A stretch of 64,000 nucleotides of DNA from IMG/VR virus record IMGVR_UViG_2596583540_000001, positions 1,510 through 65,509 of that record, one strand, 5' to 3'. Both the position numbers and the translations under genes were made by a program. Below the pieces are notes generated by a model. The model did no database searches and was not told the origin of the DNA. It was given only the letters and a program-made list of their open reading frames with translations. Origin of the DNA: a virus (taxonomy: Duplodnaviria > Caudoviricetes). Below are positions 1 through 31,443 of the stretch, piece by piece (within the stretch, counting starts at the first letter, position 1; each line of letters begins with the position of its first letter).

Positions 1-3000
1 GGTACGCCCCGGATGATCGTAATAAGCATACAAATCCTTCATATAAGACGGCAGTTCGACTCTCTGCGTTTTCCCATTCTGATCAAGCATCCCTGTCTGC
101 GGATAATACAAATCCTTAATGGATTGTGGGGTTTGACCAGTATAAAGATACTGTGTAACGGCACCTACTAAACCTACCGTAATAGGAAGTGCCAACGCAT
201 ACGACATTTTATATGTCATTTCCGGGTGTCTACCATGAAGCAGATTGTTCATCTGTTCAACAGTGTCAACACCTGCACCCCCCAATTCACGGAAGGTACC
301 TAAGTTCCAGCCAACAGACCGGACGCTTGCCATCGTTAAGTCTTTCAAAGTTTTATTCCAAAACAGATTGACATAGGCCAATTGTCCCATTCTATTATCA
401 ACACTATTCCAAATTTTTCCACCAATTTGCCGCATTTCGTCACGCGTCATATTAGGTTTTCTTGTCATTTCATATCGCATTGCATCAGCCCATACCCCCA
501 ATTTTTGACGAGGTACAATATATTCCATAATAGGTTTTGTTGCTTTATCCATAATGGCAAATGGGATACGCCATACTCCGCCTAAATAGTTCTTAGCATT
601 AAATGCATCGCTCATCTTATCCCACATACCAGTTCTGTAGAATTTATCCATCTGGACACGACCACCGGAAGCAACCAATGCATCTGCAAGTTTGGCAACT
701 TCTGCTCCCTGCGTACCCGGTGTATACCATTCCTTCAAAACCTTATTGCCACGCAAAGCATTTTCAACCGGCGCAATGGGGGCATGAAAGAAATCTTTTA
801 ATCCTGAACCAATATCACCATGAGAAACTTTCAAAAATCCTAACGCCACTTTAGATACAGTAGCATCCATGGAAGTAAAACCTAGATGGAATGCGGAAAG
901 TCCTAATTGGAACTGATTTAAAATATTAGCTGCTCCCAGATACGATCTATACAAACCCGACATGGGACGGCCATGCGTCCGTAATCCCGGTGATAAGTAG
1001 TTGTTAATCAATCGTGCTGCTTCCTTTGGCATATAATAATATCCTCTGATGTGTAATCCGCCAATAGGTTTACCGGTTACATCAACCGGTGCACCATATA
1101 CTGTTGCAATACGATCATCAATCCTTTCCCAGTTATACGGAATATCTTTAGAGGTAGCTTTAATATATTTGGTAAGTCCACGGGCTTTTGCCTCATTTAT
1201 AACATTGTGGGCCATAATATATTTATCCATTTCACGCATTTTAAGCATGGCAATATCCACGGGATTATCACTAACTGGTTTTAGTCCTGATTCTATACCC
1301 TGCTTAGTAGTTGGAATAGAACGTTTCTTCAGAAATGATTTACCACCTTCAAATGGCCGTCTTCCCGCCCACGCTGCAAACAAGTTCCCTGCATGATTAG
1401 GATCTTCCCACATATGCGGAAAGTAATTTACAATAAAATCTTGCAGTTTGCCGGTTCCTAATTGTTGTATAGCTACACGCCGTTCATCCAACATCTTTCT
1501 CAACGTATAAGCAAATTTCTGCAATTCTGGCGTAGATTGACCTCTGCCGGTTTCAATACGGTTTACAAAATCAAGATTGTCTACTGATGATTGTTTGGAA
1601 AAATAACTCCGCGCAGTATGGAGTGCATTTTCAGCACGATCAGCTTTCTGTGCCATCTCAGATAAATTTTCACGCATGATATTGGCCATAGTTTTTGCGT
1701 TTTCACCCGCTGTCGCAGGAGCTAATGTATCTTTGATATCTTTTATGCCATCTGAAATAGTATCTTTAACCGATTGTACAGCTGGCTTTATATCTTGTTC
1801 GTTAAGATTTTTTAATGGATTATTGGAATCATTAACAGGCACACTTGTTCTCTGTTTAAATGCAGTCATGCCATTGTTTTGCTGCTGATACTGATCTATT
1901 AATGATTTTACATTATCAATTTTTGACTTTAAAGCCGGATCATTATCTAGACTCTTTTCAAACGCTTTATAATAATTTGGGAATTCTTCTTTTACAAGAT
2001 CCGGATCTGTAAAATACTTCGAGCCAAAAATAGATACCCCTTCACGCCGTGCCTCTAATGGAGTTAAATTTTGCCCTTTTAGTTGGTTAAGTGCTGTATG
2101 AATCAATTCTGCATTACTCCGCAATTTTAATTTATCATCCACATATTGAGCTACTAACCGGCCATATTTAGACAAGTCAAAACCATTTTTTATTTTACCG
2201 GCAGGAGTAATCGCATTCACGGCCTTTGTGATGTCATCCGGTGTTACGGATTTATCATTAGTTGATTGACCATTATTTTCTCTGATGGAATACTGTCCTG
2301 CATTTTCATTTCTCATATTGACAAGATCTCGTTCGGTTAGTATACTCTGATTAGATAAAGCACTAGATAGTGCAGGACCCACAAGGGTATCTCCTTTGAT
2401 GGCCCGCACCCAATCTAGTGCTTTTGTCTTGTTCGCATATATCAGTTTCCCTGCTTTTAAATTGGCTGCAAACCAATTATAGTTTGGTGTAGACGATCCC
2501 TGCTTTGTACGAGCGTATGCAGTATTAAGCACATTAATAGCATGATGAGCATTATCGTTTTTTTCTAATTGAACAGGAACAACGACACTGGCACCTTGAT
2601 CAGTTTTTAACTCCAATGCCAATACAAATTTATTAACATCAGCTGTTTTAAAAACCATAACAGGATCTGCAATTGCTTTCGGTAACTGTCTTATAATATC
2701 AGTTGTCATTCCGTAGTGCTTTGGCTGTAAAACATGTTCAAAAAAGCTTCCATATACGGACAATTCCTTGTCATTTTTGCTAATCATTTGTAAAACCAAT
2801 GGCATATCCATAACTCTATAAAGACGACCATTGTTATTCTCTTTCCATACTTGTTTATCAGCTTTGTCATATGCATCAACAACATTATTCCATTTTGCTA
2901 TATCTTGATTCAAGTGTTGTTCCTGTACATCCCGTGTTTTAATATCAAGGTGATCCTGATTAATTGATTTTTGTTCTCCTAAGATACGTACATCATAATT

Positions 3001-6000
3001 CAATGTTCCGTCCGTATTAACATATGGTTTCCCTTCACGATCATTGACACCTCGTAATAATTCTGCTACACTGACAGTGTTTAAAGGAGATATCTTCCCA
3101 CCTTGCATACCCATTTGCGGCATGCTTGGGGAGACATCTCCTTTTTGTTGTATCATATCGTAAAACTTAGCATCTCTTATGGTAAATTGATTTGCGTTTT
3201 TATCTCCTTCCTTGGCTACAATTCTAAATCTTACTAATTTGTTGCCATCCTTAACAACGGAGAAAAGTTCAATATAAGGTTTACCACTAGAGTGTCTATC
3301 ATCTATATGCTTCTCAACATATATTGTATTATTTAAAATATTTTTAATAACTGATAAGGCTTTTCCTCTTGTAGCCAACCCTTGTCTTGACAGATTTGAC
3401 GAATTAATTAAATGCCTGCCATCCGAAACAGAGGCTACCCTTCCCGTACCTTCACTACCAATAATAGTAAATGTTTTTCCAATTAAACTTTTAGCTATTG
3501 CCACTTTTTCTTGATTATTTTTTACATTCACTTTTGGCTGATCTGTTACATCTATAACAGGCACACGTGTATCACCTGTAATATTTTTATTCGTTACAGA
3601 GTAATCCTCATCTTTTATATAGTCTGCCTGCTCACCTTCGCTTTTCCACACTTCATTAGTTTTAATCTTCCGCATCACATTATGAACATTTTCCGTCCCT
3701 GTTAAAACAACTTTTATTTTGTTTGCGAAGTCAATTAATTTATGATATAACTTACCAAATATACCCTGTGGTTTAGCCATACCGGCATACTTGGAAAATG
3801 CATCTGCCATTACTTCATTAACATTTACGCCTTGTTTTTTTGCAATAGGATCGTAATGATTCAGCATGGCATCTTTTTCACGCCGTGTTAAAGCCATATC
3901 CCATGCCGCATGAAAAGCTTCATGATAAACTGTTCCTTCTCGGCTGCTCTGTGACAATTCCATTAATCCAGAGAGATGATCGAGAGATGTTTCGCGCCAC
4001 GCCCCTTCAAGGCTGATGGTTGATTTAGGAGAAACACCATGCGCCAATTTTGCGTTTTCTATTTCTTTGCCGTTCCGTATAATTTGATTTTTAATATCGA
4101 CTACAATTCGTTTACCGTTAGGCATATCAACATTTATCAAATTCCCGTCTTGTGAAAATTCACCGGCAGGAAAAGCTCTTTTAACTTCTGCTGCAACATC
4201 ATCATACGCACGTTTAACTTCCGGATGATTTGTTGGAATCATATGATTCTGTCCGGCAACCTGGTATAAGGTAATACCTTTATCTGTTTTTTCTTGTTCA
4301 ACAGTATCAAAAAAGGCATCAAATGCTTTCCGAATTTCAGGCATTTCTTTTGGCTGTACATAAGGATACCCTTTTTCTCTGTCGCCTTTTACATTTGCTT
4401 CCCATGCCGACGCTGGGACGATATTAGCAAGGTAATCATCTGATTCGCCACGTTCTTTTAACTTATCTACAATATAACTTTCAAAGGCACGAGCATATAA
4501 TTCTTCCGGTTTACTCCAATATGGTTTTGAACGGTATTGATCCAATGCTTCTGCCCGTTTCACCATACCTGAATTATAAATAGCTTTGCGAATATCACCC
4601 CACTTCTTTACTATTTCAGGGCGTATTCCTTCAGGCGAATAATATTTGCTGCCTTGTGCTGCTAACCGTACATCAGATGCTGTTGATAAAAATTCATCTT
4701 TTTTACGTTTTGTTCCAAAGAAGTAATCTAAAGCATGTAACCATTCATGTGCTAAACTTCCTGCACCTTCATTCTTTGTAAGATTGATAACATTATGTAA
4801 CGGTTCATAATGTGCCGCTGCCGGGTGCTTGCCGCCAATACCACGGGCACCAAAGGCAAGTCCTAATTGTCCGTTTAATGACAGCGCTTCTGGATCGACA
4901 TCAATAATATTAGCCATATCACGTAGTGAATCATACGCATTATTTAAGTCCGACTGGCGACGTTTGCCTTCCACCCAATTACCAAATTCAACACCTCTGA
5001 ATCCAAATGCCTTACCGAAAATTTCCGGAGTAACATCTTTGCCCTTTCGATAGTTGGTACCAACACGCTGTTCATTTGCCTCTCTGCGTTCATTTGGCAC
5101 ATACTTCATCTGCTTCAGCTGTTCTTCTAATTCTGTTGCATGATTGTCACGATAATTAACTGCATCTTTAACGTTCTTGAATCCATCTTTCATCAAAACA
5201 ACTCGGTTACCAATTTTTTTACAAATTTCATATTCCTTGGTACCACGGTTTATATAAATTCCAAATGACTGCTTTGTTGTATTATCGGCATTATCTCCCA
5301 TAATACTATCATATTGTTTTTTAAATTTATCAATTACCTGTTGTTCGGTATCACCATCAACAACGGTTTTATGAAAGTGCACCTGCCCTTTTTGTGCTTT
5401 TACTATCTCCCATATATGTTTAGGAGGATTATATTCTTTGCCGTCATACATACTATATGTACCTTCTGACAATGTATATTCTTTTAAAGAATGCGCATGC
5501 CCGACTGCTTCATATAATTTGGCATTAGAAACGACATCACGAATACCTTTATGTCCGCTTGAATACAACCTTTTTTCTATTTCATCTCCTTTACCATCCA
5601 ATATCATTTGTGCCATTTTCTTTACAGCATCAACGCCTTGAGCCCAGTATTTTATATCTCTCCGAGGTTTATTGCTAATAGAATCCCGCAATGCATGAAC
5701 AAGAGCTATGGCATGTTTATCTGCCCCCGCCTTTATTAATGCATCATATTTTGGTTCTGGAAATGACTTCGATAATGGTTTGGTTTGAGTATCAATCTTA
5801 TCACTGTCATCCAATTCTTTTTTATAAGAAGTATATATATCTTTCCGTGCGCCGCCTATTTTTTCGCCAAAATCTTCAATTTTAGTAGTTTTGGATTGTT
5901 CATTCTCTATTTTTGTTTCCAAGTTATTTTTGGAATTATTGATTTTGTTTTCACGGTTGGTATTTTTTTGTTTTTCAGCTTGGTCAGATTGGGCGTTTCC

Positions 6001-9000
6001 AATTGTATTTTCAACGGCTTGTCCACCCAAGCGTGCCCGATTGATTTCATTGTTTTCTCCTTTGAATACAGTATCCGTAATATTTTTAGCCTGCTTTAAA
6101 ACGTCCTCAGGGTTCCTGCCATATATGCTGTGCTGAAAATCTCCGGCAGCTCGTTGCGCAGTATCCATATCCAAAAAAGCTTCTGGAAAATTATCGGAAG
6201 AATGATATACCATCCAGTTTGCTAACCTACCATATATATCCTTGAAAAAATCATTATAGGATATTTTTTTTGGTCTGCCTTCCATTGATATAGAAAGCTT
6301 GTTCTGATGAGCATAGTTTTGAAGAATATCTGCCACTTTTTCTGTAGGAACAGGTCCATCATTTCGAATATTATTGACAACAGCCCCAACACCGGCATTT
6401 GTTTCGTTTTCCCATATACCATTGCGCTGATCATATAAAGCATTCAATTTCTGTTGACTAGAGACAGGGATAATGTCTTTATCATCACCAAGTCCCATAT
6501 GTATAACAGAGTCTTCCCCATATTTATTGGCAAGAGCATCTTCCATACTATCAATTTCTTTTTGCACATCATCATACGCAGGCTGCCGTTGTTTATCAGT
6601 TGACACCTTCCCTCGTAATTTATCCTGCAATGTTTGTACCGCTAATGGCTTATTTGCAAGTACATCATTCCGAAGCTTGTTATTAACAGGAATATTATTG
6701 TCATCTGCTAATTTTAGCAGTTGTTTTTCTAGTCGTAATTCCCCAGTGCTGCCCGTTGTTCCTCTGGCGTTTTTTTGTTCCACTCCGCTGTTTTCTTGTC
6801 TAAATAAGCGTTCATTTCCGGCGTGTTCCTGTGCATAAAGGCTTTCCGTTCCGCCAACGTTGGTTTCTTTAGAATTTTCCCGTCCTTGCTCAAATAATGA
6901 TTTTTGTCCATTGTTATTCACCTCATTAATAGAACGTTCAATAATATTTTCAAGAGAAGGTCTTTCCGTACCAAATAATTCTGCTTGGTGCGGATCTCCA
7001 ACAGCCATAATTTTATTGCAGATGGTTTTATATACTTCGCTAATTTTTTTGGTACTGAATTTATTAGCATCAACAAATTCCAAGATTGCCCGTTCTTCAG
7101 GCGATATGGAAGCATCAAACAAACTTGTTTCTTTAAGATAAAAATTAAGCGGTTTCTTAGCATCACGGAGTGACATTAATACTTTAGATGCATCAGACAT
7201 AACTTTTGATATGTCATACTTATAAAGAGTTCCATGGTCTATCCCATAATTTACTTTTGCCACATCGGGAGCTGCAATAATCATTGCTTTTAAAATATTT
7301 TTACTATTATTATCTGTCGATTCACTCATTTTTGCAAGTAATGCATTATCATGATATGCCTTAGCAAACATTGCATTCTTAATACGGCTAACACCATAGG
7401 GAGTAACTTCGTGCTTGTCATTATAAATAGCATTACTGTCATCTTCTGTCTTAATATCTCGTGCCGCAAGTTTTCTAAATTCCCTGTTCCCCGGATTCAA
7501 GAATTCTCCTGTACCATCATCAACAAATTTATTCATGGTAGATAGTTTGAGTTTGTTTGCATCCATTTGTGCTTGTTCTGCCGAACCTAGCCGTGCACCA
7601 CCTTCAGTACTATGAATAATATCTTTGATAGGCGCTTCTTTATCTACTTGGCGAACGAGTATTGGATTATCAATAGCTTGCACTTGTCCTGATGTAAAGC
7701 CAAATTTATTAGCGTTATCTTTTAAATATTGTTTATATCCAGCCGCACTTATTTTATGCTGTCTATCTTGTCCCTCATATGCCCGTTGAATAGCAATAGT
7801 CCGGCCATTACCATTTAAAACAATACCATTTTTATTAACAACCGGGGCCCCTTGATTAACAAATTGACTGTCCGACAGCAATTCAGGTTTAATAGTCCGT
7901 GCCATCTTTTCAACTTGATTGCGCATTTCACCACGCTGCCGATCTCTCGGTTGCAGTTCAATTGGATATTTAGGATTAATAGAATAATCCGTCAGATTGC
8001 TAGTTATCAGGTCACCTGACGGTACCAGTTTATATGTTGCATTAAATCCTTTATCTAATGTATTTGCATGAACACTTGTGACATTGCCTGTTGGTACATG
8101 CTGCATTAATTGTTCCTTTTTGTTTAGATAATTATCTTGTACAAAAGGTTCATTTGTCGATTCTTCCAATGGCTTTGGCGTTATTGATTTTTGCAGCAGA
8201 GAAGACGGTGTATCTTCCTGCTGCTGTTTTAATGCATTCTGTATTTGACTATCCGGCACATGACTTTTCTTTAATTTATCTTGCAAAGTCTGTACTGCTA
8301 AAGGCTTGCTTTCAAGTACCGCTTGACGTAATTTATTATTGACAGGCACTTGATTATTATCAGCTAAATCTAACGGCGTGGGAACATTTTGAATAGGAAT
8401 CGTATTCATATCAGCATTCTTTAAGTCAATCTGTGGATTATTCTGCAAAATATTCCTAATTGCTTCCAAATCTCCGTTTATACCCGCCATCTTAATACTG
8501 TCACGCAGTGCCTCATCCGAGTTATCAGGCAACGAATTTAGGACTAAATCTGCCGTCCGTTGTGCCGTCATAGCATCAATTTGAGGACCATACATATTTT
8601 TCAGCGTATCAATGTTTTCCTGTGTATCGATGAATGGGCTATTATTTTGATCTCCTTTGAACATTGCATCCAAAGTACTTTTTTCATCCGGATTACTATT
8701 TTCCTGACGCTGAATATCAGCTTCTTCTTTTGCCATTTCATTACTGATCTGATCTATTGTATCATCATTAACAATATCATTCATTGCTTTTTGATCTGCT
8801 TGTTCATCCTGTCGAGATGCTTTATCAAATTGATTAATGATATTATCCTGTGTAGAATCAGAATTTATTGAATCGGTTGATGTTCCAGAAGTATCAGACG
8901 TTTTAATAATTTTAGTGGGTTCCAGACCACCCATTTTATTATAATCATCGCCATGAATAATCTTACCTTGACTTGTAGAATTACCAATATAACCACCGTC

Positions 9001-11538
9001 ACCATCGTATAAAACAACATGGTCATCATCGCCATATACAATAACGTCGCCTTTTTGTAAATTATCTTCGCTGAATGGAACAACTCTATCACCAGCATCT
9101 TTTACAAGGGTATCTACATTATCTACCCCTTTCTTTGATTCTTCTGCTAAAAATGGATCATAAAAAGAACCTATTTTGCCAACAGCTTCAACACACCCAT
9201 TTGCACCATTTTCCATTGATTGCCCAATCCACGCTTCTGTACCGGCAGATAAGCCATCATTTGACTCTGTATCAAATTCACCAGTGCCGCCTAAATTATC
9301 ATATGCATTTTGTACTTTACTCAGATATTCGTCATCGCCACCACCATTGTAATCTTGTACACCTTTCCACAAATCACCATCGTCATTAGCTATTTTGTCT
9401 TTCAAAACTGCCATGCCTGCTTCTGCATTCTGTTTCGGATCAGTCTGATAGTCTGGATATAAATCTGCAATTTTTGCCCGGCCACCATTGCCATCATTAA
9501 TATCTGTATCTGGTTCAATCTGAAACATGCCCCCACCATCAGACATTTTTATAGCATTGACATCTCCACCGCCTGTTTCAACTGCTGCAACTGCAAGTGC
9601 TACTTTTGGATCAATGCCTGCATTATTTGCAGCATGTTCAATAATTCCGACATTACTATTATCAGAACTTACAGGAATATCGTCAGAATTATTTTCTTTA
9701 TCGGATACAGATTCCATGGGTATATCTTCTTCATTTTCAGATGTTTCTTCTGGCATTGATGACATCATATCATAGGCAGTATTGACACGTTTCGAGTCCC
9801 CACTGCGCAGAGCATCAAACATTGTATTATAATTATCTTCACCTATTGACTCTGGATCTATATTATCCAGATAATCTGAAAGTTCATTTTCTTTAGATAA
9901 TGTATCAACATCAACAGATGAATCAGGCCTCGTTGCTTGGTCATTATTCATTTGTCCATTATCAGTATTTGCCATGGAAGACATTGGCTCTGTTGCTGAT
10001 TGACTGTTTTCTGTTTCATTGGTATTTGGATTTACCGTTGTTTGTGTATCCTGCATTGTCTGATTCCCGGATACAGTATCCGTTTTAGGCACCATTCTAC
10101 TTAAAACACCGCCAGGAATACCCATGGCTGCGCCACCATAGGCACCTCCGAAGAAAGAAGCTACTTGATCAGGTGTCCATGTATCCGGATTCCATAGATC
10201 GCCCGACGGTTGCCCCATTGCATTATTCTGAATTCCTTGCTGTTCTACTTGCTGTAAACCACCAATTGCCGCGTTTGCAGCAAGTCCCGGTACAGCACGA
10301 GGTACAGCAAGTGCTGCACGTTGTGCGATACTTTCACTTGCTGTAGGTGTAAGATTCCCAAATGTTGCACCTTTCATACCCGCATATTCAACAGGAATAG
10401 TTGCCATATCTACACCTAATGCTTTCACAAATACAGGAAAAGCTTTAAGACGCGCATTAGTTTGTGATTCACCATTTTTTACCATATCATTAATAGTACT
10501 TCCGTAACGGGACGCTGCATCAAGGAATGAAGCCGGAGAAGTCTTAATAAAATTAGTAATAATTTCTTGCCCTACTTTACTGGTTGCTGCCCGTTGTAAT
10601 CCAATTCGGGATAATCCTCTAGTAATTGCACCTGTCCCCGTTCCAACGACAGCTTCAGGAAATAGAGCAGCTGTACCGGCAATAGCGGCTGCCGAACCAA
10701 GCCCTGCACCTATATCAAAAGCGAGTCCCATTGGATTAGTGAAATATTCCATAGATGTATAACTTTTAAATTCTGGTCGTTGCATAGATGCATTTACTCT
10801 ATCCATTCCTTCTAAAGGCGCGCTCCATCCAAAATCATTGGCTGCGCCCGCAAGCATGTTGCCAACTCCCGATACAGCACCTTTTAAAACCCCCGTTGCA
10901 TAAGGATGGTCACTATAAAATTGCTGAGATTGTGCAGTTCTTTCTTCTTCCGGCATTGCGGTACCTTGTTCACCATTCATTTCTGGTAAATTAGGCATAG
11001 ATGGGTCTATATCACTATCAAGAGGACGTTGATAGCCATTTCCTATCGGTTCCGGTGTAAGATATTGTTTTGCCGCTTGTGCAATACTATTTAAGGTTTC
11101 ATTTATTCCAGATTGTTGTGATTGAGCTGCTCGTTTCTCTTCTGGCATTGCAGTTCCAAATTCACCGCCTTGTTCGGGTAAATTTGGCATAGAAGGATCT
11201 GCATCACTGTCCAGGGGACGCTGATAACCGTTCCCTATTTGTACTGGAGTAAGATATTCCTGTACTGTTTGTTTTACATTCCCCAAACCATTACTAATCG
11301 CACTTTCGGCAGCATTCGCTGGCTGTGGATTATCGAATCCACTTACATCTACATCTGATGTATCCGGTAATTGCCAATTATCTAATGTGCTTTTAATTTT
11401 ACCAATTATATTATCAAATATCCCCGGTTGATTTTGTGATTCTTCCGATGTATTTTCTTGTCCATCATCAGTAGATTGTATTTGTTTAATATTATCCGGA
11501 TCTCCAACAACAGATTCTAATTCGCTATAAAAAGACAT
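1..11538 (-). CDS. Giant polyvalent/internal virion protein, at least 3846 aa, 3' end outside window. Domains N to C: SLT lysozyme-like (~9310-9650), NlpC/P60-like (~8900-9250), ddrB-like ParB (~6950-8100), LPD5-like (~5500-5890), LPD1-like (~4300-5100), zincin (~3700-4100), LPD3-like (~3150-3560), MuF-C/PBECR-like (~2430-2900), LPD38-like C-terminal region
   Basis: RBS AGGAGG then ATG at 11538 (MSFYSELESVVGD). Same frame is still open at base 1 (VELPSYMKDLYAYYDHPGRT), and the ORF track lists no terminated ORF from this start. Motifs read manually: AVAAVETGG, GCVEAV..HVVLY, LQPRDR..GAP..GNGRT, IEDFGEKIGGARKD, FRGVEFGNW..LAHEWLHALD, YHEAFH. Domain names are from motif recognition, not HMM searches. 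Confidence 0.9.
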   Translation of the reverse strand, partial: MSFYSELESVVGDPDNIKQIQSTDDGQENTSEESQNQPGIFDNIIGKIKSTLDNWQLPDTSDVDVSGFDNPQPANAAESAISNGLGNVKQTVQEYLTPVQIGNGYQRPLDSDADPSMPNLPEQGGEFGTAMPEEKRAAQSQQSGINETLNSIAQAAKQYLTPEPIGNGYQRPLDSDIDPSMPNLPEMNGEQGTAMPEEERTAQSQQFYSDHPYATGVLKGAVSGVGNMLAGAANDFGWSAPLEGMDRVNASMQRPEFKSYTSMEYFTNPMGLAFDIGAGLGSAAAIAGTAALFPEAVVGTGTGAITRGLSRIGLQRAATSKVGQEIITNFIKTSPASFLDAASRYGSTINDMVKNGESQTNARLKAFPVFVKALGVDMATIPVEYAGMKGATFGNLTPTASESIAQRAALAVPRAVPGLAANAAIGGLQQVEQQGIQNNAMGQPSGDLWNPDTWTPDQVASFFGGAYGGAAMGIPGGVLSRMVPKTDTVSGNQTMQDTQTTVNPNTNETENSQSATEPMSSMANTDNGQMNNDQATRPDSSVDVDTLSKENELSDYLDNIDPESIGEDNYNTMFDALRSGDSKRVNTAYDMMSSMPEETSENEEDIPMESVSDKENNSDDIPVSSDNSNVGIIEHAANNAGIDPKVALAVAAVETGGGDVNAIKMSDGGGMFQIEPDTDINDGNGGRAKIADLYPDYQTDPKQNAEAGMAVLKDKIANDDGDLWKGVQDYNGGGDDEYLSKVQNAYDNLGGTGEFDTESNDGLSAGTEAWIGQSMENGANGCVEAVGKIGSFYDPFLAEESKKGVDNVDTLVKDAGDRVVPFSEDNLQKGDVIVYGDDDHVVLYDGDGGYIGNSTSQGKIIHGDDYNKMGGLEPTKIIKTSDTSGTSTDSINSDSTQDNIINQFDKASRQDEQADQKAMNDIVNDDTIDQISNEMAKEEADIQRQENSNPDEKSTLDAMFKGDQNNSPFIDTQENIDTLKNMYGPQIDAMTAQRTADLVLNSLPDNSDEALRDSIKMAGINGDLEAIRNILQNNPQIDLKNADMNTIPIQNVPTPLDLADNNQVPVNNKLRQAVLESKPLAVQTLQDKLKKSHVPDSQIQNALKQQQEDTPSSLLQKSITPKPLEESTNEPFVQDNYLNKKEQLMQHVPTGNVTSVHANTLDKGFNATYKLVPSGDLITSNLTDYSINPKYPIELQPRDRQRGEMRNQVEKMARTIKPELLSDSQFVNQGAPVVNKNGIVLNGNGRTIAIQRAYEGQDRQHKISAAGYKQYLKDNANKFGFTSGQVQAIDNPILVRQVDKEAPIKDIIHSTEGGARLGSAEQAQMDANKLKLSTMNKFVDDGTGEFLNPGNREFRKLAARDIKTEDDSNAIYNDKHEVTPYGVSRIKNAMFAKAYHDNALLAKMSESTDNNSKNILKAMIIAAPDVAKVNYGIDHGTLYKYDISKVMSDASKVLMSLRDAKKPLNFYLKETSLFDASISPEERAILEFVDANKFSTKKISEVYKTICNKIMAVGDPHQAELFGTERPSLENIIERSINEVNNNGQKSLFEQGRENSKETNVGGTESLYAQEHAGNERLFRQENSGVEQKNARGTTGSTGELRLEKQLLKLADDNNIPVNNKLRNDVLANKPLAVQTLQDKLRGKVSTDKQRQPAYDDVQKEIDSMEDALANKYGEDSVIHMGLGDDKDIIPVSSQQKLNALYDQRNGIWENETNAGVGAVVNNIRNDGPVPTEKVADILQNYAHQNKLSISMEGRPKKISYNDFFKDIYGRLANWMVYHSSDNFPEAFLDMDTAQRAAGDFQHSIYGRNPEDVLKQAKNITDTVFKGENNEINRARLGGQAVENTIGNAQSDQAEKQKNTNRENKINNSKNNLETKIENEQSKTTKIEDFGEKIGGARKDIYTSYKKELDDSDKIDTQTKPLSKSFPEPKYDALIKAGADKHAIALVHALRDSISNKPRRDIKYWAQGVDAVKKMAQMILDGKGDEIEKRLYSSGHKGIRDVVSNAKLYEAVGHAHSLKEYTLSEGTYSMYDGKEYNPPKHIWEIVKAQKGQVHFHKTVVDGDTEQQVIDKFKKQYDSIMGDNADNTTKQSFGIYINRGTKEYEICKKIGNRVVLMKDGFKNVKDAVNYRDNHATELEEQLKQMKYVPNERREANEQRVGTNYRKGKDVTPEIFGKAFGFRGVEFGNWVEGKRRQSDLNNAYDSLRDMANIIDVDPEALSLNGQLGLAFGARGIGGKHPAAAHYEPLHNVINLTKNEGAGSLAHEWLHALDYFFGTKRKKDEFLSTASDVRLAAQGSKYYSPEGIRPEIVKKWGDIRKAIYNSGMVKRAEALDQYRSKPYWSKPEELYARAFESYIVDKLKERGESDDYLANIVPASAWEANVKGDREKGYPYVQPKEMPEIRKAFDAFFDTVEQEKTDKGITLYQVAGQNHMIPTNHPEVKRAYDDVAAEVKRAFPAGEFSQDGNLINVDMPNGKRIVVDIKNQIIRNGKEIENAKLAHGVSPKSTISLEGAWRETSLDHLSGLMELSQSSREGTVYHEAFHAAWDMALTRREKDAMLNHYDPIAKKQGVNVNEVMADAFSKYAGMAKPQGIFGKLYHKLIDFANKIKVVLTGTENVHNVMRKIKTNEVWKSEGEQADYIKDEDYSVTNKNITGDTRVPVIDVTDQPKVNVKNNQEKVAIAKSLIGKTFTIIGSEGTGRVASVSDGRHLINSSNLSRQGLATRGKALSVIKNILNNTIYVEKHIDDRHSSGKPYIELFSVVKDGNKLVRFRIVAKEGDKNANQFTIRDAKFYDMIQQKGDVSPSMPQMGMQGGKISPLNTVSVAELLRGVNDREGKPYVNTDGTLNYDVRILGEQKSINQDHLDIKTRDVQEQHLNQDIAKWNNVVDAYDKADKQVWKENNNGRLYRVMDMPLVLQMISKNDKELSVYGSFFEHVLQPKHYGMTTDIIRQLPKAIADPVMVFKTADVNKFVLALELKTDQGASVVVPVQLEKNDNAHHAINVLNTAYARTKQGSSTPNYNWFAANLKAGKLIYANKTKALDWVRAIKGDTLVGPALSSALSNQSILTERDLVNMRNENAGQYSIRENNGQSTNDKSVTPDDITKAVNAITPAGKIKNGFDLSKYGRLVAQYVDDKLKLRSNAELIHTALNQLKGQNLTPLEARREGVSIFGSKYFTDPDLVKEEFPNYYKAFEKSLDNDPALKSKIDNVKSLIDQYQQQNNGMTAFKQRTSVPVNDSNNPLKNLNEQDIKPAVQSVKDTISDGIKDIKDTLAPATAGENAKTMANIMRENLSEMAQKADRAENALHTARSYFSKQSSVDNLDFVNRIETGRGQSTPELQKFAYTLRKMLDERRVAIQQLGTGKLQDFIVNYFPHMWEDPNHAGNLFAAWAGRRPFEGGKSFLKKRSIPTTKQGIESGLKPVSDNPVDIAMLKMREMDKYIMAHNVINEAKARGLTKYIKATSKDIPYNWERIDDRIATVYGAPVDVTGKPIGGLHIRGYYYMPKEAARLINNYLSPGLRTHGRPMSGLYRSYLGAANILNQFQLGLSAFHLGFTSMDATVSKVALGFLKVSHGDIGSGLKDFFHAPIAPVENALRGNKVLKEWYTPGTQGAEVAKLADALVASGGRVQMDKFYRTGMWDKMSDAFNAKNYLGGVWRIPFAIMDKATKPIMEYIVPRQKLGVWADAMRYEMTRKPNMTRDEMRQIGGKIWNSVDNRMGQLAYVNLFWNKTLKDLTMASVRSVGWNLGTFRELGGAGVDTVEQMNNLLHGRHPEMTYKMSYALALPITVGLVGAVTQYLYTGQTPQSIKDLYYPQTGMLDQNGKTQRVELPSYMKDLYAYYDHPGRT
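2318..2346 (+). promoter_or_regulatory. Internal antisense sigma70 promoter 1
   Basis: TTGACA (2318-2323), 17 nt spacer, TATACT (2341-2346). Confidence 0.8.
2353..2426 (+). ncRNA. Putative antisense hairpin sRNA 1
   Basis: AAAGCACTAGAT (2357-2368) pairs with ATCTAGTGCTTT (2413-2424). Inner stems GTGC/GCAC and CAAGGG/TCCTTTG. Ends in a T run directly downstream of the promoter. Confidence 0.6.
3044..3072 (+). promoter_or_regulatory. Internal antisense sigma70 promoter 2
   Basis: TTGACA (3044-3049), 17 nt spacer, TACACT (3067-3072) preceded by extended -10 TGc. Confidence 0.75.
3079..3147 (+). ncRNA. Putative antisense hairpin sRNA 2
   Basis: AAAGGAGAT-A-TCTTCCCA (3083-3100) pairs with TGGGGAGA-C-ATCTCCTTT (3127-3144). 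Inner GCAT/ATGC stem, then a T run. Confidence 0.6.
5907..6050 (-). CDS. Candidate nested +1-frame ORF, 47 aa, basic
   Basis: AAAGGAG-6nt-ATG; MKSIGHAWVDKPLKIQLETPNLTKLKNKKIPTVKTKSIIPKITWKQK. Overlaps a low-complexity linker of the giant protein. Confidence 0.35.
   Translation of the reverse strand: MKSIGHAWVDKPLKIQLETPNLTKLKNKKIPTVKTKSIIPKITWKQK
6616..8367. repeat. Diverged ~95 bp direct repeats (6616-6712 and 8272-8367) flanking the ParB-like module
   Basis: Encode LADNNQVPVNNKLRQAVLESKPLAVQTLQDKL and LADDNNIPVNNKLRNDVLANKPLAVQTLQDKL. Confidence 0.85.
6729..6911 (-). CDS. Candidate nested +1-frame ORF, 60 aa
   Basis: GAGGTG-7nt-ATG. Helical, charged, natural-looking protein, while the host frame here reads as a low-complexity linker. 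Confidence 0.5.
   Translation of the reverse strand: MDKNHYLSKDGKILKKPTLAERKAFMHRNTPEMNAYLDKKTAEWNKKTPEEQRAALGNYD
10920..11260. repeat. Two-copy ~48 aa internal repeat near the N-terminus of the giant protein
   Basis: YLTP..IGNGYQRPLDSD.DPSMPNLPE..GE.GTAMPEE.R.AQSQQ occurs twice. Confidence 0.85.
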
Positions 11539-11547
11539 GTTGACCTC

Positions 11548-13584
11548 CTAAAAATAATCATCCCAGTTAACATCATTTATAATTGATTGAGCCGTATGCG
11601 GTTCCAAATTGTTACTAATTAAATTTTGCATTGCATCTTTACTATAAGGATTACCTAATGCCTTATTTCTATCCAATCTATCTGTTATCCATTCCATTGC
11701 ATCATTATAATTATTGTTGCTAGTAAGAGGAACTAGTCCATAATTGTCAATAACATCTTTGGCCGGTGCATAAGCAGCAGCTAAATCCTTTTTTTCCTCA
11801 TCAGGTGTATCTGGATTATCATATGCTTTTACGATGGACATTGCATTACTAATTGTTTGTCCATTACCACCATTACTACCTTTGTTATTAGCTCTTATAA
11901 TTCCAAGCTTTTCTTGGGTTTCTAGCTTTAATTTTGTTAATGCATATTGGAAATTCTGTGCAGTCTGCATTTCAGACAGCTTATTTTGATGCGCATTATT
12001 CTGAAGTGCCTCACGAACTTTTCCGTTATTATAAATATCTTCCGTAGTATATCCATGCTGCATTTTCATATTTGATTGTTTATACTGCTGTGCTGTTTCT
12101 GCACGCTGACGAGCATCGTTAGTATTGTAATAATTCAATGCTGTTGGCCCTGTCTTAACATATTGTGCACCTAATGTCGGATTATACTGCATTAATTGTG
12201 AAGCCAAAACATTTGCAGTTGGATAATCTCCTTTTGCAACAGCAGCTTGATATGCCGGTACTATCTTATTGGACATATATTGATCATATTGCTGTTCTTT
12301 AAGATCAGCATCAGGTTTTAATCGGTTAATTACTTCATCAATCTGGTTTTGCGGCATTCCCATTGAATGCATTTTCGCAGTAGCATCACTTACCCACTTA
12401 GCAGAACTGAATGGTTGAGGCGTATATTGTATATCAGAAATCGGCTGTCCTGCCTGAAAGTGAGAGTTTACAGCAGTATTATTTGCATTATTTTGTTGTA
12501 TAGCATTTGCTGCCGTATTTTTATCCATTATAGGAATATCGCCTTTTTCCGCTTGTTGTTCTGCCGTAAGCGGATCACCTTTAGTATTCGGATACACCTG
12601 CTGTCCTGTTTGTGGATTTAATTGTACTTCCGATGTTGCAGGCGTTGAACTTGTATTGGTTTGATTAGTTGACTGCATCGCATTTAATATTGTTTGTGCT
12701 TTTTGTGCCTGCTGTGGCGATAATTGTTGTTGAGATCCTAACGGTTGTATAACTCCATTTTGATTTGAAGCTATCGGTTGCTGTTCCGTTATCGGACCAC
12801 CTTGACTTGTAATTGGTCCACTATTTTTATATGCAGAACCGCTATCAGTTGCTATCGGTTGTGATTCAGTTGGTGCATGATTTATAGCTGAAAGATCAGA
12901 AATTTGTTGTTGTAAATCTGTGTTTTTTGATAAATCAGATGTTACTCCACCACTAATAAAATTACTTAAATCAGGCATCTGTCCATCTGTCGTTATTGTA
13001 GAAGGTGCTGGTATTGAAGTATCTGATGATGTTCCATCTACCCCTTCATTAGACAATACAGGCTGTGTCTTTGCATCATTTCCTGATAGAGTCGCAAGTT
13101 TGCTCATATCAATAAGGCCACTACCATTTACATCTCCCTGATTTGTATTAACAAAATCTGCAAAACTAGTTGGATGCGCATAATTGATAGCATTGTTTTT
13201 GGAATACAATGCTGGAATAAATGCCGGTGCCTGATAGGTTATTTGCCGTGTATTAGGATCATATGTCAATTTATTCTTATCATTCGCTAATGCGCTTTGA
13301 AAGTCAGCTGCTTGCTGTCCGTTATCACCCGCACCACTTTCCAATTGTGGAGCTGAAAATGCCTGTGTATCATTTGATATTCCATTTCCATGCATATCAT
13401 CTAAACCACTTGTTGCTGCCACTCCTTTATCAACGCCCCGTTGATTATACTGATTGTTCCATGCTTCTCCCAATAATTGACCTAATGCAAACATAGGGTC
13501 TTTATAAGCATACATAGCAAAACTAGGAACATTAAAACTACTAGGAGAAATTGCAGGATATTGTAATTTATAGTTATTAGGCAT
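11548..13584 (-). CDS. Putative internal virion/ejection protein (Q/N/S-rich)
   Basis: Long ORF with GGAGG RBS before MPNNYK; position between tail tubular gene and giant protein is typical of podovirus ejection genes. Confidence 0.6.
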   Translation of the reverse strand: MPNNYKLQYPAISPSSFNVPSFAMYAYKDPMFALGQLLGEAWNNQYNQRGVDKGVAATSGLDDMHGNGISNDTQAFSAPQLESGAGDNGQQAADFQSALANDKNKLTYDPNTRQITYQAPAFIPALYSKNNAINYAHPTSFADFVNTNQGDVNGSGLIDMSKLATLSGNDAKTQPVLSNEGVDGTSSDTSIPAPSTITTDGQMPDLSNFISGGVTSDLSKNTDLQQQISDLSAINHAPTESQPIATDSGSAYKNSGPITSQGGPITEQQPIASNQNGVIQPLGSQQQLSPQQAQKAQTILNAMQSTNQTNTSSTPATSEVQLNPQTGQQVYPNTKGDPLTAEQQAEKGDIPIMDKNTAANAIQQNNANNTAVNSHFQAGQPISDIQYTPQPFSSAKWVSDATAKMHSMGMPQNQIDEVINRLKPDADLKEQQYDQYMSNKIVPAYQAAVAKGDYPTANVLASQLMQYNPTLGAQYVKTGPTALNYYNTNDARQRAETAQQYKQSNMKMQHGYTTEDIYNNGKVREALQNNAHQNKLSEMQTAQNFQYALTKLKLETQEKLGIIRANNKGSNGGNGQTISNAMSIVKAYDNPDTPDEEKKDLAAAYAPAKDVIDNYGLVPLTSNNNYNDAMEWITDRLDRNKALGNPYSKDAMQNLISNNLEPHTAQSIINDVNWDDYF

Positions 13585-31355: not shown

Positions 31356-31443
31356 TGGCGGAAAGGATGGGATTTGAACCCATGGAGCAATTCGCTCTCT
31401 TGCTTTCAAAACAAGTACCTTAAACCAACTCGGTCACCTTTCC
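31356..31443 (-). tRNA. tRNA-Ser(TGA)
   Basis: Acceptor GGAAAGG/CCTTTCC plus GCCA, anticodon arm CTTGT-TTTGAAA-GCAAG, variable arm, T arm ATGGG-TTCAAAT-CCCAT. Confidence 0.9.

Follow-up and report, generated by a model that had tools for sequence, protein, structure and literature searches.

Candidate antisense small-RNA genes nested behind predicted RNase-type domains in the giant polyvalent protein gene of a phage

Here, we analysed a 64,000-nt stretch of phage DNA (hereafter, the window; positions 1,510 to 65,509 of the IMG/VR record IMGVR_UViG_2596583540_000001, class Caudoviricetes) and, within it, two short genetic units embedded on the opposite strand of a giant protein-coding gene, each consisting of a promoter-like sequence, a long hairpin and a run of T residues. 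The giant open reading frame (ORF) occupies positions 1–11538 of the window on the minus strand (3846 codons) and continues for 620 nt past the window start, the whole protein comprising 4052 aa. It is located behind the phage head genes, with a head-closure gene lying upstream on the same strand. Pfam detects SLT, ddrB-ParB, LPD5, LPD1 and MuF_C domains in the protein, which, judging from its sequence, is a polyvalent virion/effector protein as defined by Iyer, Burroughs, Anand, de Souza and Aravind (2017, PMC5512222). Indeed, as far as the main text of that study goes, the gene that hosts the units is a textbook case, with a PBECR-type MuF-C domain.

Two domains of this protein are relevant to the units. 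The MuF_C domain (residues 2940–3040; positions 2419–2721, minus strand) matches the Pfam profile PF18819 above the curated cut-off (E 1e-16; 61.3 bits vs 27.6). The second domain has its core at residues about 2682–2781 (positions 3196–3495, minus strand), inside a conserved block that extends from residue 2600 to about 2857, and is recognized by a sub-cut-off Pfam match to LPD3 (PF18798; 19.2 bits vs 27, E 0.0014, covering profile positions 15–109 of 114), by a shared tail motif and by an AlphaFold2 model. We refer to this domain as LPD3-like because its Pfam score is below the cut-off, yet its tail motif and antisense unit are common to canonical LPD3 loci.

Unit 1 is located directly behind the MuF_C domain and unit 2 behind the LPD3-like domain, both on the plus strand, antisense to the giant gene. 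Promoter 1 (2318–2346) comprises TTGACA at 2318–2323, a 17-nt spacer and TATACT at 2341–2346, and is encoded in the codons of the peptide SILTERDLVN; promoter 2 (3044–3072) comprises TTGACA at 3044–3049, a 17-nt spacer with TG at 3064–3065 and TACACT at 3067–3072, amounting to an extended −10 element (TG-c-TACACT), and is encoded in the codons of SVAELLRGVN. Transcription is predicted to start near 2353 and near 3079, respectively. The hairpin of small RNA 1 spans 2353–2429, as delimited by folding and covariation, with a core stem in which 2357–2368 pairs with 2413–2424; the hairpin of small RNA 2, delimited by folding, spans 3083–3144 and encodes a linker of the protein that is disordered in the AlphaFold2 model (model residues 163–178, predicted local distance difference test (pLDDT) score <50), the promoter-encoding tail being packed on the LPD3-like domain. 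Each RNA is closed by a T-run resembling an intrinsic-terminator tail, at 2422–2433 for small RNA 1, where it is the reverse complement of conserved Asn/Lys codons, and at 3142–3149 for small RNA 2, where it is the reverse complement of codons matching FYDIIK in homologues and overlaps a terminator-like hit at 3128–3143. Both the succession of promoter, hairpin and T-run at the tails of two consecutive domains and the writing of the promoters into the two peptides, which a first-pass annotation of this DNA had pointed out, were confirmed in the sequence and the folds.

Several features set the two sites apart within the window. The promoters rank as the top two among 51 promoter-like sites in positions 1–12000 (11/12, and 10/12 plus TG), the total of 51 being at the chance level (45.6 ± 7.5 in shuffles). 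The 2353–2440 segment folds with −37.2 kcal/mol (z −5.6) and the 3079–3165 segment with −28.9 kcal/mol (z −4.4), and for either of them none of 200 shuffled sequences was as stable. When the entire 64 kb was scanned with a sliding 80-nt frame, the one at 2351 was the most stable on both strands, and that at 3071/3081 came second on the minus strand and, counting distinct places, roughly fifth on the plus strand. There are no repeats within 2318–2440 or 3044–3165, and each domain is accompanied by a single antisense hairpin. Searched with Rfam at gathering thresholds, the window yielded only a tRNA at 31359–31443 and no family at the units. Both hairpins contain ATCTCCTTT, which on the sense strand is AAAGGAGAT and reads K-G-D; this shared element, to which attention had been drawn earlier, is present but is not conserved in homologues and hence carries no weight. 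An internal translation start, suggested by a Shine-Dalgarno-like AAAGGAG with in-frame start codons in both hairpins, was rejected given the lack of conservation in homologues. Further scan calls on the giant gene were dismissed as noise with poor promoters (weak calls at 1196 and 2167 on the plus strand and one at 8301 on the sense strand). A fold at 10225–10360 (−46 kcal/mol), formed by repeated GCTGCA/CTTGCTG (Ala-rich) codons, has neither promoter nor T-run, and a third unit at this site was ruled out, the z-scores being only −3.6 and −2.5.

Outside the window, the arrangement recurs in many relatives. A search for giant proteins sharing residues 2640–3100 yielded 203 matches, and among the 120 of the 203 that were listed, both promoter peptides are part of conserved tail motifs, with the hairpins falling in a variable-length linker just ahead of these motifs. 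We compiled 30 LPD3-like loci (37–62% protein identity) from Acidaminococcaceae, Mitsuokella and Acidaminococcus genomes, IMG/VR contigs and gut metagenomes, and 30 MuF_C loci, 22–47% identical to the MuF_C domain of the window, from a 401-genome sample of one bacterial class. The scan of viral contigs relied on a peptide pattern overlapping promoter 2, so that a bias is introduced in the peptide though not in the codon choice; the genome, metagenome and Pfam-based searches used no promoter-overlapping peptide pattern. In every locus of both sets, the antisense strand carries TTGAC[A/G] or TTGnnn, 17 nt, (TGn)TAnnnT, a long hairpin and a T-run. A unified automated scan for promoter, hairpin and T-run in equal 460-nt segments at domain tails detected the antisense unit in 30/30 MuF_C loci and 30/30 LPD3-like loci, compared with 2/30 and 0/30, respectively, on the sense strand, and only 2 of the 67 detections in these two sets have a spacer other than 17 nt. 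The same scan found the unit in 25/30 canonical LPD3 loci (no detection in L078, L082, L087, L091 and L096) and in 3/5 PBECR1 loci (no detection in L114 and L115), these seven negative calls coming from the automated scan alone and representing either misses or true absences; it found no unit in the 10 ddrB-ParB tails examined. The units thus occur far beyond chance and, as the first-pass annotation had surmised in calling them a recurring module, in association with particular domain types.

The layout varies in an informative manner. In three stand-alone MuF_C genes (L068, L067 and L058), the ORF ends within the hairpin and the promoter lies past the stop codon, resulting in a convergent 3′ overlap; in L068, the −10 element is a perfect TATAAT. 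In the Escherichia coli phage PhiR5_2, a MuF_C-like tail is accompanied by a hairpin (loop AATTGGA; L071, 2950–3100) and a T-run, with a weaker promoter, TTGCGA-17-TATTTT; therefore, the unit extends beyond the sampled bacterial class. Seven loci (L041, L050, L052, L054, L055, L060 and L064) contain two or three extra antisense units within 3 kb, partly behind LPD3-like or other domains, and in L041 two units only 225 nt apart follow a repeated S-I-V-x-x-E-Q-K-x-V-N tail; these extra units were spotted with our first unit detector, which has incomplete sensitivity and was used for this purpose only.

Codon usage separates constraint on the peptide from constraint on the nucleotides. In 40 distinct sequences, with the codon frequency within the same ORFs as the background, Val9 is GTC in 32/32 cases (background 0.18), Ile2 is ATA in 21/21 (0.20), Val2 is GTA in 15/15 (0.31), Ser1 is AGT in 23/24 (0.20) and Thr1 is ACT in 10/10 (0.23). 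Residue 3 is always encoded by xCA, which supplies the TG of the extended −10 element, regardless of whether it is Pro (CCA, 11/11; 0.26), Ala (GCA, 14/14; 0.32) or Ser (TCA, 7/7; 0.12). The two Leu codons of the spacer serve as an internal control, with five to six different codons in use. Of the eight MuF_C rows in which another residue takes the place of Val9, seven have a codon with C as its last base, which preserves TTG, and the eighth (L069) is of doubtful alignment; for promoter 2, the codon choice is fixed in all 30 related LPD3-like loci. Similarly, at the U-tract the LPD3-like family (unit 2 site) uses ATA for Ile in 19/22 cases and AAA for Lys in 9/9, and the MuF_C family (unit 1 site) uses AAA for Lys in 25/29, against a background of about 0.60; the Tyr and Asp codons beside the U-tract vary. 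Thus, the synonymous sites of the −35 element, the TG, the −10 element and the U-tract are fixed or biased while the spacer codons drift, and conservation of the peptide alone is insufficient to account for this pattern. The promoter elements also appear to compensate for one another: all six cases with a weak −35 (4/6 or less; the doubtfully aligned L069 left out) have the TG, and 8 of 9 cases that lack the TG have a −35 of 5/6 or better. This trade-off is of the kind seen in real promoters, albeit in small numbers of kin sequences. Given that all the sequences compared are related, simple probabilities overstate their independence.

The hairpins are constrained in a different way. At the same place in different homologues, they are unrelated in sequence, yet they pair; in the LPD3-like family, they share no sequence while the protein domain stays 37–62% identical. 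In fixed 111-nt segments following the −10 element, a design free of the bias that arises from delimiting the region on the antisense fold, the antisense strand folds with a mean of −38.4 kcal/mol vs −32.4 kcal/mol for the sense strand and is the more stable one in 35 of 40 sequences. By contrast, 300 control segments from the same ORFs show the opposite trend (−21.9 antisense vs −24.1 sense; antisense better in 106). When synonymous codons were resampled with the protein kept, the mean z was −3.3, and in 23 of the 40 sequences none of 100 resamples was as stable. The stems contain 20–35 pairs with an inner helix, and there are 151 G-U pairs on the antisense strand vs 38 on the sense strand, a comparison biased by the delimitation of the region on the antisense fold. 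For 19 MuF_C units, a sequence-only MAFFT alignment gave a consensus of 13 pairs, all 13 with compensatory double changes; paired cells amount to 88.4%, compared with 70.6% in shuffles and 31–62% in slid controls, and double-change cells to 57, compared with 21.1 ± 4.3, a level reached by none of 500 shuffles. At both sites of the window itself, the fold of the sense strand is at least as stable as that of the antisense strand; it is the family-wide trend in the sequences that decides the strand of the RNA structure, which is the antisense strand. The first-pass annotation had named a promoter and hairpin neither conserved nor covarying in homologues as grounds for abandoning the idea; what we find are fixed codons and 13 of 13 covarying pairs. 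Taken together, these comparisons show that promoter, hairpin and U-tract are under nucleotide-level selection on the antisense strand in all the relatives examined, and we conclude from the sequence evidence that the units are almost certainly small antisense RNA genes nested in the giant coding sequence. The apex of the MuF_C hairpin, GGGC-AATTGNA-GCCC (alignment A4, columns 72–86), is conserved from the sampled class to the E. coli phage, and its loop, AATTGNA, coincides with the peptide motif G-L-Q-L-P.

Close relatives of the window offer a view of change over a shorter range. A metagenome contig that is 97% identical over 2202–3700 (X7) has 38 differences in 1499 nt, none of which falls in 3026–3192 (4.2 expected; Poisson P 0.015), and in unit 1 its changes are confined to the spacer positions 2326 and 2335 and the unpaired hairpin base 2377. 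Two contigs from unrelated metagenome runs (X6 and X9) are near-identical to the window until position 3052, inside promoter 2 between the −35 and −10 elements, and then continue as a diverged allele, one of them with a different 17-nt spacer followed by TACACT again; 3137, 3323 and 3514 are noted alongside this mosaic junction. Conserved promoter bases may serve as a crossover point in domain shuffling.

Units are also found detached from their domains. The genome that contains the window (G000) carries, on contig C27 (11674–12049; locus L010; L006, 1480–1860), an isolated 335-nt copy of unit 2 and its flanks, located close to the end of the contig, where housekeeping genes give way to a stretch of low coding content. 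A 1-nt insertion in the loop disrupts its reading frame, and a 72-aa ORF (11783–12001) begins inside the hairpin. The unit is identical to that of the window at 101/108 positions, compared with 138/168 and 46/59 in the flanks, with both hexamers intact; of three changes in the stem, the first closes a mismatch, another yields a G-U pair and the third disrupts an inner pair. This copy may represent either an orphan small-RNA gene or debris left by recombination. Furthermore, L054 and L055 include short remnants that retain only the tail and the unit.

The AlphaFold2 model of the LPD3-like domain has a pLDDT of 77.9, and Foldseek returned no match to it at E 0.001 or better. The wide VIA-align search gave weak BECR/RelE-like matches with a best Z of only 3.7, many of the 50 rows being CdiA-CT, RelE, ParE, BrnT, MqsR, HigB, YafQ, YoeB or colicin D. 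A PDB sequence search with the LPD3-like profile found nothing meaningful (best E 0.19), and an LPD3 profile search of the genome holding the window gave no matches. In PHROGs, the MuF_C part matches a single family, whose function is unknown, and the LPD3-like part matches none; a DNA similarity search against cultured phages and plasmids gave no match, and a protein-mode phage search gave a single weak match for the MuF_C part, in PhiR5_2, and none for the LPD3-like part. Shared ancestry of the two domains was considered and dropped, as they are not detectably related (hhalign probability 0.2%). The two RNase assignments of the first-pass annotation fared differently. MuF-C is named among the PBECR domains, which are predicted RNases of the BECR fold, in the main text by Iyer et al. 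(2017, PMC5512222), in agreement with that annotation. For LPD3, a word that occurs once in the same main text, no function is given there, and the fold matches are weak (Z 3.7 or less); its designation as a predicted BECR RNase is not supported. The same source describes mosaic domain shuffling in polyvalent proteins. Past both promoter peptides, there is a short conserved segment that closes with Y-[QS]-[IS] (window 2251–2330 and homologous tails), represented by NAGQYSIR here and by NPxxYQ in relatives, which appears to mark the true module boundary and could be a processing site for the peptidase of the polyvalent protein.

What would such RNAs do? We lean, if only slightly, towards the view that they restrain the overlapped RNase-type domain by pairing with the complementary mRNA, in the manner of type I toxin-antitoxin (TA) systems and of the OOP RNA of phage lambda. 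Each unit would consist of a housekeeping-sigma promoter, a transcript of ~70–100 nt folded into one long hairpin and an intrinsic terminator, sited at the C-terminal tail of an RNase-type domain, within the flexible linker. Host RNA polymerase would transcribe the RNA constitutively, for example, in the lysogen, and the RNA would pair with the exactly complementary stretch of any mRNA of the giant gene, the complementarity between the nested unit and this mRNA being perfect by construction. Pairing would probably begin by loop-loop contact, with the mRNA forming the mirror hairpin, whereupon the duplex would be cut by RNase III or translation would be blocked, so that no toxic RNase-type domain would be made from leaky or internal transcripts. 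We would further speculate that cutting of the mRNA downstream of the domain and the ensuing rescue of stalled ribosomes dispose of any product and guess that, during lytic growth, strong late sense transcription overrides or occludes the antisense promoter. A brake of this kind would act per domain and, hence, travel with the domain during shuffling. We infer action by mRNA pairing because only the fold, not the sequence, is constrained in the LPD3-like family, because the stand-alone genes display the convergent 3′ overlap typical of type I TA pairs and of OOP/cII, and because the mirror hairpin in the mRNA permits loop-loop kissing. In particular, a hairpin that is free in sequence while its pairing is kept is what one would expect of an RNA complementary to its target by default, such as the cis-antisense silencer that the first-pass annotation had offered as its alternative.

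A number of considerations weigh against this interpretation. The expression, ends and abundance of the small RNAs are predictions, the toxicity of the domains and any effect on the giant mRNA or protein are putative, and the RNase activity of MuF-C/PBECR is itself predicted. No RNA sequencing run was listed as containing this DNA; a run first taken for RNA (X17), which is probably DNA, gave three short contigs (2234–2272, 2621–2653 and 2789–3009), all of them outside the units, and speaks neither for nor against expression. Antisense orientation is no proof of antisense action, since an RNA gene with a terminator can be accommodated inside an ORF in no other orientation if the host mRNA is not to be terminated, a caveat that extends to the rival explanations below. 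Constitutive transcription from a near-consensus antisense promoter would, moreover, be a burden on lytic expression. On the statistical side, kinship of the sequences inflates simple probabilities, and the structure in the covariation test of the MuF_C units came from the very alignment on which it was tested. Finally, the conserved MuF_C apex may be compatible with a sequence-specific role of the RNA, such as binding to a protein or a chaperone.

This last point leads to the first of the competing explanations, which was the main idea of the first-pass annotation and under which the units encode protein-binding RNA antitoxins akin to type III systems: the hairpin RNA would inhibit the adjacent RNase domain in the lysogen or the producing cell and would not be packaged, leaving the injected domain free. 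Such a role would sit well with the association of the units, one per domain, with RNase-type domains and not with ddrB-ParB, as well as with the conservation of the AATTGNA loop all the way to the E. coli phage, and it is plausible that cells producing an active RNase domain have to be protected from it. However, LPD3-like hairpins without a common sequence, next to a domain that remains 37–62% identical, are hard to reconcile with specific recognition, the tandem repeat array and same-strand layout of ToxIN are missing, and the apex coincides with the G-L-Q-L-P peptide so that no explanation at the RNA level is needed; we consider this possibility distinctly unlikely. Somewhat less doubtful, though still improbable, is action in trans, with the RNAs, those of the orphan copies especially, silencing the effector gene of related incoming phages or targeting host RNAs. 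Orphans do outlive the domain, as illustrated by the broken frame and well-kept unit of the C27 copy and by the remnants in L054 and L055, and rapid divergence of hairpin sequences would provide for strain-specific targeting; yet the orphans might be plain recombination debris, no target other than the gene itself has been found, with no search aimed at one, and action in trans would add to cis-antisense silencing rather than replace it, the two being non-exclusive.

Two further explanations do away with a role for the RNA. A strong head-on promoter could damp sense transcription through polymerase occupancy or collision, with the terminator confining the antisense transcript. This would account for the promoter elements being the most rigidly kept part of the unit and for the immediate termination of the transcript, but stems of 20–35 pairs with an inner helix, maintained by compensatory changes, far exceed what termination requires, and the orphan copies retain the hairpin too, making a purely transcriptional device quite implausible. 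The remaining alternative dispenses with the RNA gene itself, so that the motifs would be by-products of conserved peptides and the hairpin would act in the sense mRNA, by ribosome pausing between domains, or in DNA, in recombination of modules. Both promoters do overlap conserved peptide motifs, in the window the sense strand folds no worse than the antisense strand, and the contigs of two relatives break at exactly 3052, within promoter 2. Nevertheless, peptide conservation cannot fix synonymous positions, the antisense fold is the better one in 35 of 40 sequences against the background trend and is the one enriched in G-U pairs, the units persist where the frame is broken or has ended, and the −35 and extended −10 elements trade off as they do in real promoters; accordingly, we give this explanation hardly any credence.

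If the units function as cis-antisense silencers, they would resemble several known systems without coinciding with any. The OOP RNA of phage lambda is a constitutive RNA of about 77 nt that consists almost entirely of a hairpin terminator, overlaps the 3′ part of cII and causes RNase III-dependent cleavage. Like the OOP/cII pair, the units described here involve a short antisense hairpin-terminator RNA with a promoter in or next to a phage coding sequence, over the 3′ part of the target; unlike OOP, they lie deep inside a 12-kb ORF, one per RNase-type domain, in a translated linker, and extend over at least three domain families and many phages, being known from sequence only. The type I TA pairs of Firmicute prophages, txpA/RatA and bsrG/SR4, overlap convergently at their 3′ ends, and their toxins are small membrane peptides. 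In these pairs, as here, an RNA complementary to the 3′ end of the toxin ORF is encoded on prophage DNA, and the layout of the stand-alone MuF_C genes is identical; unlike in these pairs, the presumed toxin is an RNase-type domain, which usually forms one module within a giant virion protein, and the entire RNA gene lies inside coding sequence. The antisense RNAs IS10 RNA-OUT, CopA, RNAI and FinP target 5′ leaders or ribosome-binding sites. The units share with them one long interrupted stem-loop, a strong promoter in a mobile element and a mirror hairpin that allows kissing, whereas the target here is an internal coding linker. In ToxIN, ToxI is a same-strand array of tandem direct repeats upstream of the toxin gene that is processed by the toxin. 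Here, too, an RNase toxin, in this case a predicted one, and control by RNA are combined on phage-related DNA, but there is a single antisense hairpin with no repeats, and one of the two families has no conserved RNA sequence. By our analysis, what is new relative to cis-antisense, type I-like control is thus the proposed per-domain action, the full nesting in coding sequence and the involvement of several RNase-type families.

We found no paper linking polyvalent proteins, MuF or PBECR to antisense or small RNAs in a literature search that covered journals other than subscription ones. Nowhere in the main text by Iyer et al. (2017, PMC5512222) does the word "antisense" appear, and nested RNA genes are not described there. 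Among candidate phage small RNAs, EcOnc36, an Hfq-CRAC candidate from an Stx2 phage, is listed in a review table as "Hfq-CRAC, target unknown"; it is absent from the main text of Tree et al. (2014) and could not be placed on a genome.

A more far-reaching scenario can be sketched, which we regard as possible but doubtful as a whole, namely, that every BECR-type RNase cassette of polyvalent effectors (MuF-C, LPD3 and PBECR1) carries a nested antisense RNA as a domain-level antitoxin that is encoded by the same DNA and shuffled together with it, that orphans such as the C27 copy serve hosts, prophages or satellites as RNA-based immunity by silencing the effector gene of related incoming phages and that the rapid turnover of hairpin sequences stems from an arms race about targeting specificity.

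Polyvalent proteins are regarded as the weapons that a phage injects first, and the producing cell or the lysogen has to tolerate genes rich in RNase, nuclease and other toxic domains. If our interpretation is correct, a conserved backward RNA gene in the linker behind each RNase-type domain would explain part of this tolerance. The units would then represent a widespread class of phage small RNAs missed by standard annotation and by RNA databases, and some of the "variable linkers" and short motifs of these proteins, such as S-[IV]-x6-V-[NK], would exist owing to an RNA gene on the opposite strand. The system would also be clean and testable given that synonymous changes in the promoters spare the protein. 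Should the orphan copies act in trans, they would constitute a new form of RNA-based interference among phages or against them.

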